DNA of 64,000 nt, from contig OZ244213.1 of NCBI GenBank assembly GCA_965216905.1, positions 214,903 through 278,902 on the forward strand, in the 5' to 3' direction. This DNA comes from Acidimicrobiia bacterium. Its GTDB lineage: Bacteria > Actinomycetota > Acidimicrobiia > Spongiisociales > ZC4RG35. Under the pieces are notes generated by a model. It did no database searches, was not told the origin of the DNA, and worked only from the letters and a program-made list of their open reading frames with translations. Position numbers and translations under genes: made by a program. Shown here piece after piece: positions 2,459 to 39,871 of the stretch. Each line of letters opens with the position of its first letter. Position 1 is the stretch's first letter.

Positions 2459-2722
2459 GTGTTGGCCATGTCGCCCCGAGGCCCCCTCCCTGTGCGAGCC
2501 GCCACCGTCCTGGCCGGCACCGTGCTGATGGCGGTGGGGGTGGTGGGCCTGTTCCTGCCGATCCTTCCGGGCTGGTTGCTGATCATCCCCGGATTGGCGC
2601 TGCTCGGGCGGGAGTTCACCTGGGCGGAACGACTGCTCGCCGCCATCCGATCGAGGTTCGAGAGCACCCGATCATCGCTCGCCCAACGCCGCCCCCCCGC
2701 CGAGGAACGCGACGCCGCCTGA
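2459..2722 (+). CDS. PGPGW-domain-like small membrane protein
   Basis: GVVGLFLPILPGWLLIIPGLALLGREFTWAERLL matches the actinobacterial PGPGW family pattern. Confidence 0.75.
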   Translation: MLAMSPRGPLPVRAATVLAGTVLMAVGVVGLFLPILPGWLLIIPGLALLGREFTWAERLLAAIRSRFESTRSSLAQRRPPAEERDAA

Positions 2723-2778
2723 GGGCCAACTCGGCGGCGGTTGGTGTTGTGTCGGAGCGGCGACGCCGTCGACCAGGG

Positions 2779-3717
2779 TCATGAGTGCTTCGGTTCCTCG
2801 GGGGCGGCACGGTCGACCACCCACTCGGCGACGAGGTCGAGGGTGACCGGGTCGACCGGGCGGCGGACCTGCTTTCTGTAGGTTCGGACCGAGGCGGGGC
2901 CGGCGTCGATCCGGAGCAGGTGGGTCAGGTCCCTGGGCCGGTGACTGGTGAAGTCACCGTCGACCAGGTTGGCCATCCTTTCGAGATCGTCCGGATCGAC
3001 CTGGACGTCCTTGTCGCCGGTGATGGCCAGCATCGGCACGGTCATGCCGTCGACGGCGGTGGTCGGGTCGTAGGCCATGAACTCGCGAAACCACTTGGCG
3101 TTCACCTTGACCATCTGAAGACGCATCACGTCCTGGGTCGAGGCCTTGATCTCGTCGAGGCGCTTCCGCTGGGTCTTCGCCAGATCCAAACGGAGGACCT
3201 TCGTCAGGATCTTGACGGGCCCTGGCAGGCTGTCGCCGATCTGGGCCATCTGCCAGACAAGGATGTCCTCGCCATTCCGAGCGGCGCCCGCCAGGAGGAC
3301 CACGCCGGCGATCGACGGATCGGTGACGGCCATCTCACCGGCGATGAGGGCTCCTTCGCTGTGGCCGACGACGAACGTTCGGTCAGCGGCGACCTCCGCT
3401 CGGGCCCGCAACGCGGCCAGGGCCGCCAGGCCATCGTCGACGTTGTCGTGGAAGCCGGTGGCTTGGTACTCGCCGCCACTGTCGCCGACGCCGCGTTTGT
3501 CGTAGCGGAGCGACGAGACGCCGGTTACCGCCAGCCGTTCGGCCACCTGAGCCATGACGTCGATGGGCATCCGCTTCATGTTCGAGTCGCGGTCGATCGG
3601 GCCGGAACCGCTGATCAGCACCGCGGAGGGGCCAGGCCGCCCGGCGTCGGCCACGGTGAGCGTGCCGACGAGCGTGTGACCGGCTGAGGCGAACGAGATG
3701 ATTTCGGTGTGTGCCAT
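2779..3717 (-). CDS. Alpha/beta hydrolase (esterase/peptidase-like)
   Basis: GSGPIDRD, LRYDKRGVGDS, nucleophile elbow GHSEG, GDKDVQV, THLLR. RBS GAGGAG-like upstream of ATG 3717. Confidence 0.9.
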   Translation of the reverse strand: MAHTEIISFASAGHTLVGTLTVADAGRPGPSAVLISGSGPIDRDSNMKRMPIDVMAQVAERLAVTGVSSLRYDKRGVGDSGGEYQATGFHDNVDDGLAALAALRARAEVAADRTFVVGHSEGALIAGEMAVTDPSIAGVVLLAGAARNGEDILVWQMAQIGDSLPGPVKILTKVLRLDLAKTQRKRLDEIKASTQDVMRLQMVKVNAKWFREFMAYDPTTAVDGMTVPMLAITGDKDVQVDPDDLERMANLVDGDFTSHRPRDLTHLLRIDAGPASVRTYRKQVRRPVDPVTLDLVAEWVVDRAAPEEPKHS

Positions 3718-3765
3718 GGCGACCCTCCTCGGGAGGCTGCAACTGGCCTCGTTCGTACCGATCGT

Positions 3766-3797
3766 TCTCAATACTGCGAATATTATCAATGATGAGA
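3766..3797. promoter_or_regulatory. Possible operator in the divergent hydrolase/regulator promoter
   Basis: AT-rich stretch bounded by the inverted pair TCTCA...TGAGA in otherwise ~70% GC DNA. Confidence 0.3.
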
Positions 3798-3811
3798 CTA
3801 ATCTGCAACCC

Positions 3812-4342
3812 GTGACATCACGAGACCTTCTCCTCCATCCCGTCCGCCTCCGCATCGTCCAGGCGCTCGTTGGCCGGCCGCTGACGCCGCTGGCTCTGAA
3901 GGAGCAACTCGGCGACGTGGCCCAGGCGACGCTCTATCGCCACATCAAAGAGCTTCACGACAGTGGGTTCATCGACGTGATCGACGAGCGGCAGGTACGC
4001 GGCGGATCAGAGCGCACCTACGCGGTGGTCGAATCGGCGGTCCACCTGGGCCCGGACGAGCTGGCCGACTCCACACGCGACGACCACGTCCGCTACTTCC
4101 TCACGTTCCTCGGCACCCTCATCGCCGACTTCTGCACCTACCTCGAGTCGAATGACCCGGACCTGGCGGTCGACGGCGTCGGATATCAGCAGACCCCGCT
4201 GTGGCTGAGCGATGAGGAGTTCGCAGACTTCGCCGAGGAGGTGAGCAGGGTCATTCGGGCGCGCCTCGGGAACAGTCCGGAACCGGGACGTCGGCGCCGG
4301 CTGTTCACCACCGTCGTCATGCCCGACCGGAGGCACGACTGA
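3812..4342 (+). CDS. ArsR-like helix-turn-helix transcriptional regulator
   Basis: LLLHPVRLRIVQAL...VAQATLYRHIKELHDSG...RGGSERTY; divergent from the hydrolase. Start GTG 3812 inferred. Confidence 0.85.
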   Translation: MTSRDLLLHPVRLRIVQALVGRPLTPLALKEQLGDVAQATLYRHIKELHDSGFIDVIDERQVRGGSERTYAVVESAVHLGPDELADSTRDDHVRYFLTFLGTLIADFCTYLESNDPDLAVDGVGYQQTPLWLSDEEFADFAEEVSRVIRARLGNSPEPGRRRRLFTTVVMPDRRHD

Positions 4343-4405
4343 CATCGGTCGAGGCGCCCTGGCGCTATCGAGGAAGCGCGTCGGGCGCCCTTGACGAAGT
4401 GCGAC

Positions 4406-4822
4406 TCAAGAGGGTGAGTAGACCCCCATGTCCCGAGCCTTCTCGGTCTGCCAGAAGATGTCGGCGATCTCATCGATCAGATCGACCAGTTTCTGGCCGT
4501 CGGCCGGGTCGACCGACTTCTTGGCGACGCCGGCCTGATGGATGGCTCTCCAGAACAGATCGTCGAGGTTCGAGAACTGCTCACGATGGTCAGCGGTGAA
4601 GAAGTCCGCCCACAGCACCATCAGGTGGTGTTTGGCGAGCTCGGCCCGTTCCTCCTTGACGGCGATGGCCCGGGCACGGAACACCTCGTCGTCGGAGTCC
4701 TGGTACTTCTGAGCCGACTTCATCACCGACAGCGCCTCGATCTTGGCCTGGGCGGGGTCGTAGACGCCGCAGAAAAGGTCGCAGTGGGCGTGTGCCTTGG
4801 TGGATGGACGAAACAGTCCCAT
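4406..4822 (-). CDS. sodN: Nickel superoxide dismutase precursor
   Basis: 12-residue leader, then Ni-hook HCDLFCGVYDPAQA; KEERAELAKHHLMVLWADFF; divergent from an S26 maturase. Confidence 0.93.
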   Translation of the reverse strand: MGLFRPSTKAHAHCDLFCGVYDPAQAKIEALSVMKSAQKYQDSDDEVFRARAIAVKEERAELAKHHLMVLWADFFTADHREQFSNLDDLFWRAIHQAGVAKKSVDPADGQKLVDLIDEIADIFWQTEKARDMGVYSPS

Positions 4823-29625: not shown

Positions 29626-29676
29626 TTTTTATCACCCAGAAGGGTGCCAAAACACCCTGTTGAGGTCGCGAGAACG
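29626..29676 (-). repeat. 51-nt REP/MITE-like element, copy 1
   Basis: Reverse complement is CGTTCTCGCGACCTCAA...GGTGATAAAAA, sharing 17 5' and 11 3' bases with the copy at 33923-33973. Confidence 0.75.
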
Positions 29677-33881: not shown

Positions 33882-33922
33882 CCTTCCCCGGGAGCCCACC
33901 TTCTCGACGGAGGCCGTTTCCT

Positions 33923-33973
33923 CGTTCTCGCGACCTCAAAGGGACCGAGAGAGGCCGTTTGAGGTGATAAAAA
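33923..33973 (+). repeat. 51-nt REP/MITE-like element, copy 2
   Basis: CGTTCTCGCGACCTCAAAGGGACCGAGAGAGGCCGTTTGAGGTGATAAAAA with internal ACCTCAAA/TTTGAGGT stem. Confidence 0.75.
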
Positions 33974-33980
33974 CGATGGC

Positions 33981-34850
33981 TCAGGGCAGGTACCGCTGCT
34001 CGGCTTCCTTCAGCTCTCCGGCGTTCTGAAGGCGGAAGATTTCTTTGACGGGGACGATCTCGTCCTCGACCGGTGCCAGCGAGCGGTTTCGATGGATGGT
34101 GGTGGCCGTGTCTTGCATTGCCCGGATCGACGAGCGAAGGAGGTGGTTCGCCCAGATCACCAGGCTGACGCCGGCCTCCTCGAAGACCTCTGTCGGGGTC
34201 GACCAGTAGGTGGTGGGAACGACGACCACCGGGACATCGCGATCCCAACGCCCCATGAACTCGACGATCTGAGAGGCATCGGAGATCTTGGAGTGCATGA
34301 GGATTGCATCGGCTCCGGCCTCGGCGTAGGCCGTGGCGCGACGAACCGCTTCGTCCATCCCCCAGCCGGCGATCAACGCCTCCACTCGGGCGACGACGTT
34401 GAAGTCGGGGTCCGACTGGCTGTCCTTCGCCGCGCGAATCTTCCCGGCGAACTCCTCGACGTCGGCGAGCTGCTGAGCCTCGCCGTCGATGAACGAGTTC
34501 GTCTTCGGGAACAGCTTGTCCTCGATGCACATCGCCGCGATCGAGCGCTGCTCCAGCTTCTGGACCAGCCGCCGAACGTTGTTGAAGTTCCCATATCCCG
34601 TGTCGGCATCCACCATGATCGGGATCCGCGAGGCGTCGGACATGAACTCGAGCACTTCGAGGATCTGGGTCCAGCTCGCCTCGTTGTTGTCCCGCACGCC
34701 GAGGGCCGCGGACATGGCGAGACCACTGGCCCAGATACCGTCGAACCCCGCCTCTTCGACGATCTTGGCGCTGAGGCCGTTGTGGGCTTCGAGGATGAAC
34801 TCCAGCCGGTCCGAGGCCAGCATCTCCCGGAAGCGGGTCGACTTGTTCAC
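33981..34850 (-). CDS. pepM: Phosphoenolpyruvate mutase
   Basis: [27 protein letters not shown] and the diagnostic [10 protein letters not shown] (EDKx5NS). GTG 34850 with AGGAG RBS. Confidence 0.95.
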
Positions 34851-34860
34851 GGGTGCTCCT

Positions 34861-35826
34861 TCAGCTGAGGACGATGAAATTCTCGGCGGTGGCGGTTGCG
34901 TCCGGCAGGTCGGCCGGCGCCTCTTCGATGCCGCGCACGATGAGTGCGCCAATCTCTCGTTGAGAGTCGATCGTGGCCGCTCCGATGTGGGGTGTCAGGA
35001 TCACGTTCTCGAGGTCGGCGAGTGGGGAGATGTTGCCGTCTCCCTCCTCGGCATGGACGTCGAGCGCCGCGCCGGCGAGATGACCGCTCAACAGCGCCTC
35101 GCGCAGTGCGAGTTCGTCGACCACGCCTCCCCGGGCCATGTTGACGAGGAACGCTCCCGGCTTCATATGCGCCAGTTCGCCGGGACCGATCAGCATCCGG
35201 GTCGATTCCTGGAGCGGCACGTGAACGCACACGTAATCGCTCTCGGCGAGCACTTCGTCGATTCCGGTGAGACGGATGCCGGCTTCGGTCAGTCGTTGCC
35301 GGGCATCGGCGGTGGGGTGCTCCACACACCCGAGCACCTCCATGTCCCACGCGACTCCGAGTCGACCGGTCCGGGTGCCGATGTTGCCGGCACCGACCAC
35401 GCCGAGGACCCGGCCGGTGAGGAGACGCCCGCGTGCTTGTCGCTTGACCCAGTTGCCGCGTCTCCATTCGCCGTCGGCCCACCGGACCTGCCGGGAGAGG
35501 TTGAGCATGTGGGCAAAGGCCAGCTCGGCCACCGCCTTCGCTCCGGGACCCGGAACCCGAACGAAGCGCACCTTCATGGTGCCGAGGGCGTCCAGGTCGA
35601 TGTTGTCGTATCCGGACCCCGCCCGGATGATCGTGTGGAGCTGGGTCCCGGCCGCGAGCACTCGTTCGGTGATCTGGACACCGCTCCGGAACACCAGCGC
35701 CTCACAACCCGCGATGGCCTCCACCAGCGATGCTTCGTCCGCTCCGAATCGCTGGACGACCTGATGGCGCTCGGCCAGGTCTGCGATGGCTTCGGGGGCG
35801 ATGGCGCTGGCGAGGAGGATCTTCAT
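34861..35826 (-). CDS. D-isomer-specific 2-hydroxyacid dehydrogenase (candidate phosphonopyruvate reductase)
   Basis: [19 protein letters not shown], catalytic VNMARG / DVHAEEG / TPHIGAAT; no ACT domain; 10 bp from pepM. Confidence 0.88.
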
Positions 35827-36611
35827 GCGGTCTCTTTCGGGTCTTTGGAACAGTGAAACACGTGCTCGTCATCCGTCAGGCCAAACATGATCCGCGCCGC
35901 CGGATCGATGTCGGTGGCCGGGAACACCCGCACGCCGAAGCCGTGGGACCGGAGCCGGTCGACAACGTCGCCTCCGTAGTCCCGGCGATGGTCCGCCTCC
36001 CCGAACGCCGCCCTTCGCTCGTCGGGATCGGTGATGGACGGGTCCTCCCGGGTCACACCGTCGAGGCGACAGGGAAAGTTGAGCACCGCCCATCCCCCCG
36101 GACGCAACACCCGGTACAGCTCCGCCATGGCTGCGTGATCGTCGTCGAGGTGTTCGAGGACATGGATGCTCAGCGCGGCGTCGAAGCTCTCCGACGGGAA
36201 TGGCATGTCGGTGACATCGAGCCGCATCGTGGGGAGATCGCGACGACGGATGTCGATTCCGACCCAGTCGATGGAGGGAATCGCCGCCAACGCCCTCCCG
36301 GGACCGATCGCCGGCGCCACGTGGAGCAGCCGGATCGGCCCATCCCAGAGATTCGTGTGCTGTTGGAGGTGGAGCCACACGCGCCGGTGGCGGGCTTTGG
36401 CGTTGCAGCGCGGGCAGTAGCCGTTCTGACGGGTTCTGAGCGATCCACCCTGATGGGTGAAGGCGGCCACCCCGGTGTCACACACCAGGCAGCGGTACCG
36501 GCTTCCTCTTCGGATCAATCCCCGGCCCGCGAGCAGTGCCGACTTGGCGACCCAGCGAAGATCTGAACGCCACTCGCTCCGGCGCCCCGCGCGAGGGCTG
36601 GGCCGTCTCAC
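35823..36611 (-). CDS. Class I SAM-dependent methyltransferase with N-terminal Cys (zinc-ribbon) motif
   Basis: CLVC...CPRCNAKARHR, LLHVAP, LDVTDMPFPSESFD, HVLEHL, LYRVLRPGG; ATGA overlap with the dehydrogenase. Start uncertain (up to 36755). Confidence 0.85.
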   Translation of the reverse strand: MRRPSPRAGRRSEWRSDLRWVAKSALLAGRGLIRRGSRYRCLVCDTGVAAFTHQGGSLRTRQNGYCPRCNAKARHRRVWLHLQQHTNLWDGPIRLLHVAPAIGPGRALAAIPSIDWVGIDIRRRDLPTMRLDVTDMPFPSESFDAALSIHVLEHLDDDHAAMAELYRVLRPGGWAVLNFPCRLDGVTREDPSITDPDERRAAFGEADHRRDYGGDVVDRLRSHGFGVRVFPATDIDPAARIMFGLTDDEHVFHCSKDPKETA

Positions 36612-36656
36612 ACCGGTCTGCACACGCACGCACCAAGATTCATGAACGGAACTCCC

Positions 36657-36704
36657 ACCCCATTTGGCACCCCATCTGGCACCCCATTCGGCACCCCACT
36701 CGGC
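36657..36704. repeat. Four tandem 12-nt repeats (consensus ACCCCATTYGGC)
   Basis: ACCCCATTTGGC ACCCCATCTGGC ACCCCATTCGGC ACCCCACTCGGC. Confidence 0.85.
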
Positions 36705-36835
36705 CATCCTCCGCTCCCAGACTCTATCGCCGCCTGCCTGGCTCGTGGGATGCAATCTGGAATCGTCGAGGTCGAGCCGGGTGGGGACGTCGGGGATCGA
36801 CCCGGCACAACCCGACGGAGCGGTAGCCTCACTCG

Positions 36836-39722: not shown

Positions 39723-39771
39723 CCTGCCGTCGGACGTCGGAGCGGCGCAACCGGAGAGCGGTGCGAAGACC

Positions 39772-39826
39772 GCGCTTTAGCGGTATTTCTTGAGCGCCCG
39801 CAAGCTGTCGATCAAATCGGCGCACC
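39772..39826 (-). ncRNA. SAM-II-class riboswitch
   Basis: Minus strand reads GGUGCGCCGAUUUGAUCGACAGCUUGCGGGCGCUCAAGAAAUACCGCUAAAGCGC: P1 GCGCC/GGGCGC plus the conserved GAUUUGA, UUGC, AAAU and GCUAAA blocks, upstream of a methionine-synthesis gene. Confidence 0.8.
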
Positions 39827-39871
39827 CGCCATCGTAGTGGCGGGTACGCCGGAAGCGACTGCTTCCGACCG

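Follow-up and report, generated by a model that had tools for sequence, protein, structure and literature searches.

The stretch analyzed here, 64,000 nt of contig OZ244213.1 from an Acidimicrobiia bacterium (assembly GCA_965216905.1; "the window" below always means this whole stretch), carries on its minus strand, at 33981-36611, three genes encoding a zinc-ribbon class I methyltransferase (MT), a 2-hydroxyacid dehydrogenase (DH), and a phosphoenolpyruvate (PEP) mutase (PepM). Our best explanation, which we hold as a whole with moderate confidence, is that this trio forms a single co-translated operon for the start of a phosphonolactate-type phosphonate pathway, the likeliest product being methylated phosphonolactate on a surface polysaccharide. 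The original prediction, made from the window, described the operon as a minimal pathway in itself. This did not hold: the trio is one piece, split off from a larger conserved gene set whose other usual members reside in a Wzx/Wzy island elsewhere in the genome. The three genes are:

33981..34850, minus strand: PepM (PEP mutase), 289 amino acids (aa), start GTG 34850 in an open reading frame (ORF) that stays open to 34952

34861..35826, minus strand: DH, a short D-2-hydroxyacid dehydrogenase of the phosphoglycerate dehydrogenase (PGDH) type, 321 aa, with PF02826 and PF00389

35823..36611, minus strand: MT, a predicted zinc-ribbon class I S-adenosylmethionine (SAM) methyltransferase, 262 aa, start GTG 36611 in ORF 35823-36755

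The tight coupling of these genes noticed earlier was verified. The DH start codon (ATG 35826) overlaps the MT stop codon in an ATGA, and only 10 bp separate the DH stop (34861) from the PepM start (34850). GTG 34850 is the likely start of PepM, being preceded by the Shine-Dalgarno sequence GAAGGAG. For MT, the likely start at GTG 36611 yields a protein of 262 aa, in line with homologs of ~250 aa; the alternative ATG 36707, the choice of a public gene caller, yields 294 aa.

PepM scores 393.6 bits against the TIGR02320 equivalog model (cut-off 319.55) and falls below the cut-offs of the sister families, phosphonopyruvate hydrolase, methylisocitrate lyase, and CPEP mutase. It also matches PF13714 (E 8.6e-60). 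The EDKx5NS active-site signature reported for it was located at 34494-34523 (residues 109-119 of the 289-aa protein). Because the protein aligns over its full length with the characterized Mytilus enzyme (1M1B; E 1.2e-126, ~68% identity), PepM very likely converts PEP to phosphonopyruvate. The genome contains one PepM copy. A catabolic role was considered and rejected, as PepM is over the equivalog cut-off and under that for phosphonopyruvate hydrolase, and the genome has no C-P lyase.

DH contains both domains of D-2-hydroxyacid dehydrogenases, catalytic (PF00389) and NAD-binding (PF02826), and in both NCBIfam and the PDB its closest matches are phosphoglycerate dehydrogenases (such as 1wwk, E 3.6e-56). 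The GxGxxG motif (GVVGAGNIG) and the Arg (NMARGG), Glu (DVHAEEG), and His (TPHIG) residues can be read from the translation. A phylogeny against SerA had been suggested as a check. In a tree with the SerA-like paralogs of the same genome as the outgroup, the window DH lies inside a clade of MT/PepM-linked DHs from other genomes (support 100/99), which has a long stem and stands apart from all five paralogs. Within this clade it nests with Acidimicrobiia loci ordered FemAB-ATPgrasp-MT-TK-DH-PepM, where TK is a dTMP-kinase-like P-loop protein. The combination of PepM and 2-Hacid_dh was catalogued as a branch point by Li and Horsman 2022 (PMC8942020), and purified VlpB has been used as a phosphonopyruvate reductase (PMC11867202). 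Family, clade, operon coupling, and the absence of a decarboxylase together give strong grounds to infer that DH is a VlpB-like phosphonopyruvate reductase yielding phosphonolactate.

The absence of a decarboxylase, first noted for the window, holds for the entire genome (a single contig of 3.48 Mb, 98.8% complete). The best match to phosphonopyruvate decarboxylase (Ppd) reaches 27.9 bits against a cut-off of 312.5, that to the 2-aminoethylphosphonate (AEP) transaminase PhnW 20.8 bits against 400.8, and no C-P lyase PhnJ is found. Since the genome lacks all three, reduction to phosphonolactate is the likely driving step, and the proposed reduction of phosphonopyruvate by a PGDH-like enzyme remains the best reading of the PepM/DH pair. 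Some other genomes encode PepM fused to a nucleotidyltransferase domain; no homolog of this domain was found in the window. Under another explanation, the trio is a fragment of the standard AEP pathway, with ppd and phnW located elsewhere in the genome. The presence of PepM is its only support, and the scores of Ppd and PhnW, far below cut-off in a nearly complete single contig, leave it practically no probability; it was rejected.

MT matches Methyltransf_11 (56.7 bits, cut-off 21.2) solely over the latter half of that profile. N-terminal to this Methyltransf_11-type domain are four Cys residues invariant in the family (CxxC...CPRC), with codons within 36405-36491. An AlphaFold2 (AF2) model (pLDDT 86) has the class I methyltransferase fold, and Foldseek matches it to RebM, AtmM, PMT, and similar enzymes with probability 1.0. 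Both Foldseek and PDB profile searches returned generic class I methyltransferases only and gave no substrate hint. All 51 family-invariant residues are retained (51/51), and the motif I region reads LLHVAPAIGPGR in the window versus the family consensus LLHVAPKYSLARR. The homolog search yielded 799 matches, the closest being 59% identical.

Phylogeny ties MT to phosphonate genes. We took 80 related MT loci from species-representative genomes and mapped PepM, DH, and other neighbors in them. In the tree of 81 MTs, the window MT belongs to a clade of 61 sequences with support 100/100. PepM is encoded within 10 kb in 37 loci of this clade, and 10 of 12 further clade genomes without a nearby copy encode it elsewhere (47/49 in total), compared with none of the 12 genomes whose MTs fall outside the clade. 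Thus, the MT clade is close to a marker of PepM genomes, while the converse fails. The link between the methyltransferase and phosphonate genes, implied by the initial reading of the operon, is strengthened by this near confinement of the clade to PepM genomes.

The gene set around MT was then counted in 60 non-redundant loci of the clade from at least eight phyla, with 21 loci outside the clade for comparison. The recurrent partners are:

46/60 clade loci: U420, an ATP-grasp protein of ~420 aa

50/60 clade loci: TK or c13 (an unnamed protein of ~430 aa), never both in one locus

36/60 clade loci: PepM

32/60 clade loci: DH

30/60 clade loci: a FemAB/Acetyltransf_6-like protein

None of these partners (ATP-grasp, TK/c13, PepM, DH, FemAB-like) occurs in any of the 21 loci outside the clade. 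Other recurrent neighbors include Wzy, Wzx, GT4 glycosyltransferases, a deacetylase-like protein, and a UPF0489 protein, and many clade loci also contain Wzx/Wzy/GT4 polysaccharide genes. Conserved synteny, proposed earlier as something to look for, is indeed observed: the same MT and DH clades occur together in loci from at least eight phyla. A metagenome scan with DH added just two loci of the clade, and nothing more closely related to the TK-less trio turned up.

Two layouts can be distinguished. Type A, FemAB-ATPgrasp-MT-TK-(UPF0489)-DH-PepM-FemAB with frequent 4-bp overlaps, is found in Acidimicrobiia, Planctomycetota, Chloroflexota, and Geobacteraceae. In type B, DH lies beside a PepM::NTP_transf_3 fusion, and ATPgrasp-c13-MT is located about 4-6 kb away. 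Fusion of PepM at its C-terminus to a MobA-like NTP_transf_3 domain is observed in eight loci (L042, L053, L054 at 2625-4472, L055, L056, L058, L063, and L085), all of the c13 type. In several Gemmatimonadota, c13 itself is fused in frame to MT (L042:7252-9375, L054:8717-10798, L058:8684-10732, and L065:1944-4160). The AF2 model of c13 (pLDDT 82) points to the nature of this protein: the top 50 PDB matches of its N-terminal domain are all nucleoside diphosphate kinases (NDKs), with probability about 1, target TM 0.5-0.6, and E about 1e-3, and its invariant His lies in VHCGET, which resembles the NDK motif HGSD. Thus, TK and c13 are differing nucleotide-kinase-like proteins that substitute for each other. 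Because they replace one another, phosphoryl transfer onto a phosph(on)ate group is suggested as a step of the pathway.

A divergent PepM-like protein occupies the same cassette position beside DH and MT in L012 (9005-9931), L032, and L039. It is 39-42% identical to the window PepM and has EDNLFPKRNS in place of EDKx5NS; therefore, motif-based surveys would miss proteins of this type.

For both DH and PepM of the trio, the closest relatives are in Acidimicrobiia loci of type A (up to 82% identity for PepM, 64-66% for DH). TK, which lies between MT and DH in type A loci, is gone here, and the MT stop overlaps the DH start instead. A tblastn search with the dTMP-kinase-like protein found no homolog in the genome. 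In the window, PepM adjoins a DH of the linked clade, and ATP-grasp and TK/NDK-like genes are absent; the trio lies outside any Wzx/Wzy/glycosyltransferase locus, among betaine and choline genes. Profile searches located the usual partners together at C1:1.9486-1.974 Mb, 1.7 Mb from the trio, with the ATP-grasp, NDK-like, FemAB-like, and TK-like partners spanning C1:1.949-1.957 Mb. The island contains:

C1:1.9486-1.9512 Mb: c13, profile match E 3e-78

C1:1.9486-1.9512 Mb: ATP-grasp protein U420, profile match E 5e-165

C1:1.9486-1.974 Mb: a FemAB-like protein, E 3.5e-63

C1:1.9486-1.974 Mb: an NTP_transf_5 (PF14907) and thymidylate-kinase-like protein, weak matches

C1:1.9486-1.974 Mb: GT4 glycosyltransferases, three sulfotransferases, an APH-like kinase, Wzy, and Wzx

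C1:1.9486-1.974 Mb: a Wzz-like chain-length protein, a putative assignment made from position alone

In this organism the phosphonate system thus seems to be divided between two sites. The island (C1:1948558-1974027, ~26 kb; L103 and L104) sits amid ribosomal-protein genes, between map and rpsM-rpoA.

Because the partners lie in a sulfotransferase-rich polysaccharide island, decoration of a surface polysaccharide is the preferred fate of the product, and of the two outcomes originally considered, a methylated phosphonate or a surface modification, comparative genomics favors the latter. Alternatively, the product of the trio may be a small molecule released from the cell, for example O-methyl phosphonolactate, that acts as an antimetabolite or signal independently of any glycan. 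The 2.95-kb insert that holds the trio encodes no transferase, ligase, or glycan gene, the best fold matches of MT are small-molecule methyltransferases, and phosphonolactate has been isolated from the spent medium of the valinophos producer (PMC8942020). However, members of the MT and DH clades are seldom found away from ATP-grasp, kinase-like, and FemAB-like genes, and polysaccharide loci are a frequent setting; the genome retains these partners; and no exporter or resistance gene accompanies the trio. A free product is therefore unlikely, although it deserves some weight.

In the family relatives G003 and G010 the gene order is opuAC-opuAA-opuAB-betB-betA; in our genome the place of betB is taken by the trio, which is encoded on the other strand. 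Alignment with the relatives at the DNA level ends at the permease stop and returns at the betA start, and the segment in between contains no betB remnant. Two features are relevant here:

33882..36835: a 2.95-kb segment holding the trio, without counterpart in family relatives, which carry betB at this place

36656..36704: a 12-nt tandem repeat, CACCCCATTYGG on the plus strand, ~4 copies, Tandem Repeats Finder (TRF) score 70-72

We read segment 33882-36835 as a probable insertion that replaced betB. In two relatives, betB lies between opuAB and betA at L115:10523-11998 and L117:4107-5585. The genome keeps betA without a close betB, the best paralog being 47% identical (C1:869908-871329). A 51-nt element at 33923-33973 falls exactly into the junction that separates the stop codons of the permease and PepM genes, and has an inverted partner at 29626-29676; no further copies were found in the rest of the genome, and the element gives no clue to the insertion mechanism.

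The 12-nt repeat lies 45-93 nt upstream of the MT start, inside the 224-bp divergent region between MT and betA, and is a possible candidate operator. If MT started at ATG 36707, the repeat would be translated as a repeated EWGA peptide. A promoter and terminator scan and an Rfam search assigned no element to the operon.

A patchy distribution, with an MT ortholog in 4/40 family or order relatives, together with the replacement of betB, the loss of TK from the operon, and the long MT branch, might indicate that the cassette is an orphan of horizontal transfer, silent or devoid of a working downstream pathway, with its kinase gene lost and its partners distant. Several observations speak against such decay: the three ORFs are intact and translationally coupled, MT keeps its complete set of invariant residues, PepM remains close to a characterized enzyme (~68% identity), and the GC content of the insert equals the genome average. 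We see only a slim chance for an orphan cassette.

The insertion also bears on the suggestion that betaine methyl groups feed MT, a metabolic tie between the operon and the flanking betaine and choline genes. The operon does adjoin the opuA transporter, betA, and a homocysteine methyltransferase gene. However, the trio has these neighbors in this genome alone, as a result of the replacement of betB, no betaine gene is a recurrent neighbor in the 80 related MT loci, and any SAM-dependent enzyme uses the same methyl pool. Because the trio was inserted in place of betB, its proximity to betaine genes is incidental. A betaine link is very unlikely and was dropped from consideration, its adjacency not being conserved. 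Upstream of the homocysteine methyltransferase gene, a weak match to the SAM-II riboswitch (SAM_alpha, RF00521) is seen at 39760-39833 of the window, minus strand, scoring 24.3 bits, under the gathering score of 36.

Based on these observations, the following pathway can be proposed. PepM would convert PEP to phosphonopyruvate, and DH would reduce the latter to 2-hydroxy-3-phosphonopropanoate (phosphonolactate), pulling the unfavorable mutase equilibrium, as VlpB does in valinophos biosynthesis. MT would then methylate the C3 phosphonate unit at the 2-OH or at a phosphonate oxygen; the atom is a guess, and these two sites are favored. The ATP-grasp partner would need a free carboxylate. The trio would represent a relocated piece of the gene set conserved across phyla, often inside Wzx/Wzy/GT4 loci, and would have reached its present site by replacing betB. 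Finally, the kinase-like proteins may activate the unit, and ATP-grasp, perhaps together with the FemAB-like protein, may attach it to a sulfated polysaccharide made by Wzx/Wzy. These activation and attachment steps we infer from gene association alone.

Phosphonolactate could instead be an intermediate on the way to another phosphonate, such as a dihydroxypropylphosphonate-like compound or a phosphonolipid head group, produced by enzymes encoded elsewhere. TK or the NDK-like c13 could phosphorylate such an intermediate, and VlpC-E process phosphonolactate further in valinophos biosynthesis (PMC8942020). However, neither the vicinity of the trio nor the recurrent gene content of the 60 related loci shows any such genes (no search aimed at VlpC-E homologs was made), and the recurrent neighbors are glycan-assembly rather than lipid genes, which makes this route distinctly improbable.

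Several facts weigh against a methylated phosphonolactate on a surface polysaccharide. The related loci come from metagenome-assembled genomes (MAGs) throughout, and none is characterized. The operon lacks its usual TK gene, a distance of 1.7 Mb separates the trio from the polysaccharide island, and the only TK-like domain, in that island, is weak (TK profile E 2.6e-10; Pfam 30 bits). The window MT sits on a long branch (0.79), its nearest relative being 59% identical; its fold matches are generic (TM about 0.5); and its motif I is the non-canonical LLHVAP, lacking E/DxGxGxG. Because of this generic fold match and the non-canonical motif I, the substrate of MT and its use of SAM are predictions. 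Two MAGs of the MT clade (L041 and L045) have no PepM, and a metagenomic cassette, L118, has no MT. In this last case (L118:2747-7913) the order is GT4-ATPgrasp-(1.3 kb unknown)-TK-DH-PepM, and a zinc-ribbon MT was undetected. Because L118 retains ATP-grasp, TK, DH, and PepM, we read MT as an optional tailoring enzyme of the cassette.

Phosphonates form a notable share of the environmental phosphorus pool, and most surveys sort PepM neighborhoods by the decarboxylase route. If the proposed pathway is correct, a second and rarer route, driven by a reductase, would supply polymers of the cell surface in Acidimicrobiia, Planctomycetota, Gemmatimonadota, Chloroflexota, and several further phyla, with unfamiliar activation enzymes and an accessory methylation step. 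A broader generalization is more tentative and, in our estimate, rather less probable than its negation: a widespread, undescribed class of surface polysaccharides may carry a C3 phosphonate (methylated here), with kinase-like activation and attachment by ATP-grasp, and the trio may be its portable starter kit. In this case, activation would be performed by dTMP-kinase-like or NDK-like enzymes, the latter sometimes fused to MT, instead of the usual cytidylyltransferase route, and the starter kit would move alone yet still feed a distant glycan locus. If correct, the proposed pathway would also bring new phosphonoglycan chemistry and new enzyme functions, namely those of a phosphonate-linked zinc-ribbon MT and of NDK-like and dTMP-kinase-like proteins with a phosphonate as their possible substrate. 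The closed genome and the three-gene cassette provide a convenient minimal set for heterologous expression.

The initial remark that this is not a described cluster stands in part. Our literature search found no paper on the MT/kinase/ATP-grasp set, or on the reductase route combined with ATP-grasp, a TK/NDK-like protein, an optional zinc-ribbon MT, and a polysaccharide locus. The branch point of PepM and a 2-hydroxyacid dehydrogenase, on the other hand, is published (PMC8942020). New here are the MT-bearing, TK-less three-gene form, its distance from the glycan island, and the probable insertion replacing betB.

Several known systems share some features with the trio. DhpI of dehydrophos and FzmB of fosfazinomycin biosynthesis are class I SAM enzymes that act on small phosphonates, methylating either a phosphonate oxygen or the carboxylate. 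They resemble MT as class I SAM enzymes tailoring phosphonates; neither is among the profile matches of MT at E <= 0.01 nor among its top 50 Foldseek matches, and, unlike the window MT, both lack an N-terminal zinc ribbon. In the O-methyl phosphoramidate (MeOPN) modification of the Campylobacter jejuni capsule, a small phosphorus group is activated by kinase and nucleotidyltransferase enzymes and put on a sugar, with SAM-dependent methylation. Here the similarity is an analogy of logic only, namely activation, transfer to a capsule sugar, and methylation, whereas MeOPN lacks a C-P bond and is made by unrelated enzymes.

Closer in product are the AEP-type phosphonoglycans, such as Bacteroides fragilis polysaccharide B, reportedly treated by Rice et al. 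2019, which are said to be made by PepM-Ppd-PhnW with cytidylyltransferase activation. In both cases a phosphonate made via PepM would be placed on a surface polysaccharide, and the eight related loci with PepM::NTP_transf_3 add to the likeness. The differences are that the unit predicted for the trio is a C3 hydroxy-acid phosphonate rather than the C2 AEP, that Ppd and PhnW are absent here, and that in most relatives the predicted activation partner is a dTMP-kinase-like or NDK-like protein together with ATP-grasp rather than a LicC/LicD pair.

The nearest described gene set is gene cluster family (GCF) 540, an unclassified family in which Ppm is flanked by a thymidylate kinase and a PF14907 nucleotidyltransferase, mentioned in one sentence with no function (PMC8942020). 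The likeness concerns thymidylate kinase and PF14907: one island protein matches both of them weakly, and related loci have TK next to PepM.

The best precedent for the chemistry is valinophos of Streptomyces durhamensis. VlpA/VlpB, like the trio, combine PepM with a PGDH-type D-2-hydroxyacid dehydrogenase and no decarboxylase (PMC8942020, PMC11867202), and in both, phosphonolactate is the predicted first stable phosphonate; VlpB is likened to DH by family and gene context, not by sequence. The two systems differ in what surrounds this core. The trio has neither adjacent VlpC-E-like genes nor a valine-ester logic, the insert being three genes bounded by opuAB and betA; instead, it contains a dedicated zinc-ribbon MT, and its relatives reside in polysaccharide loci rather than in natural-product clusters.

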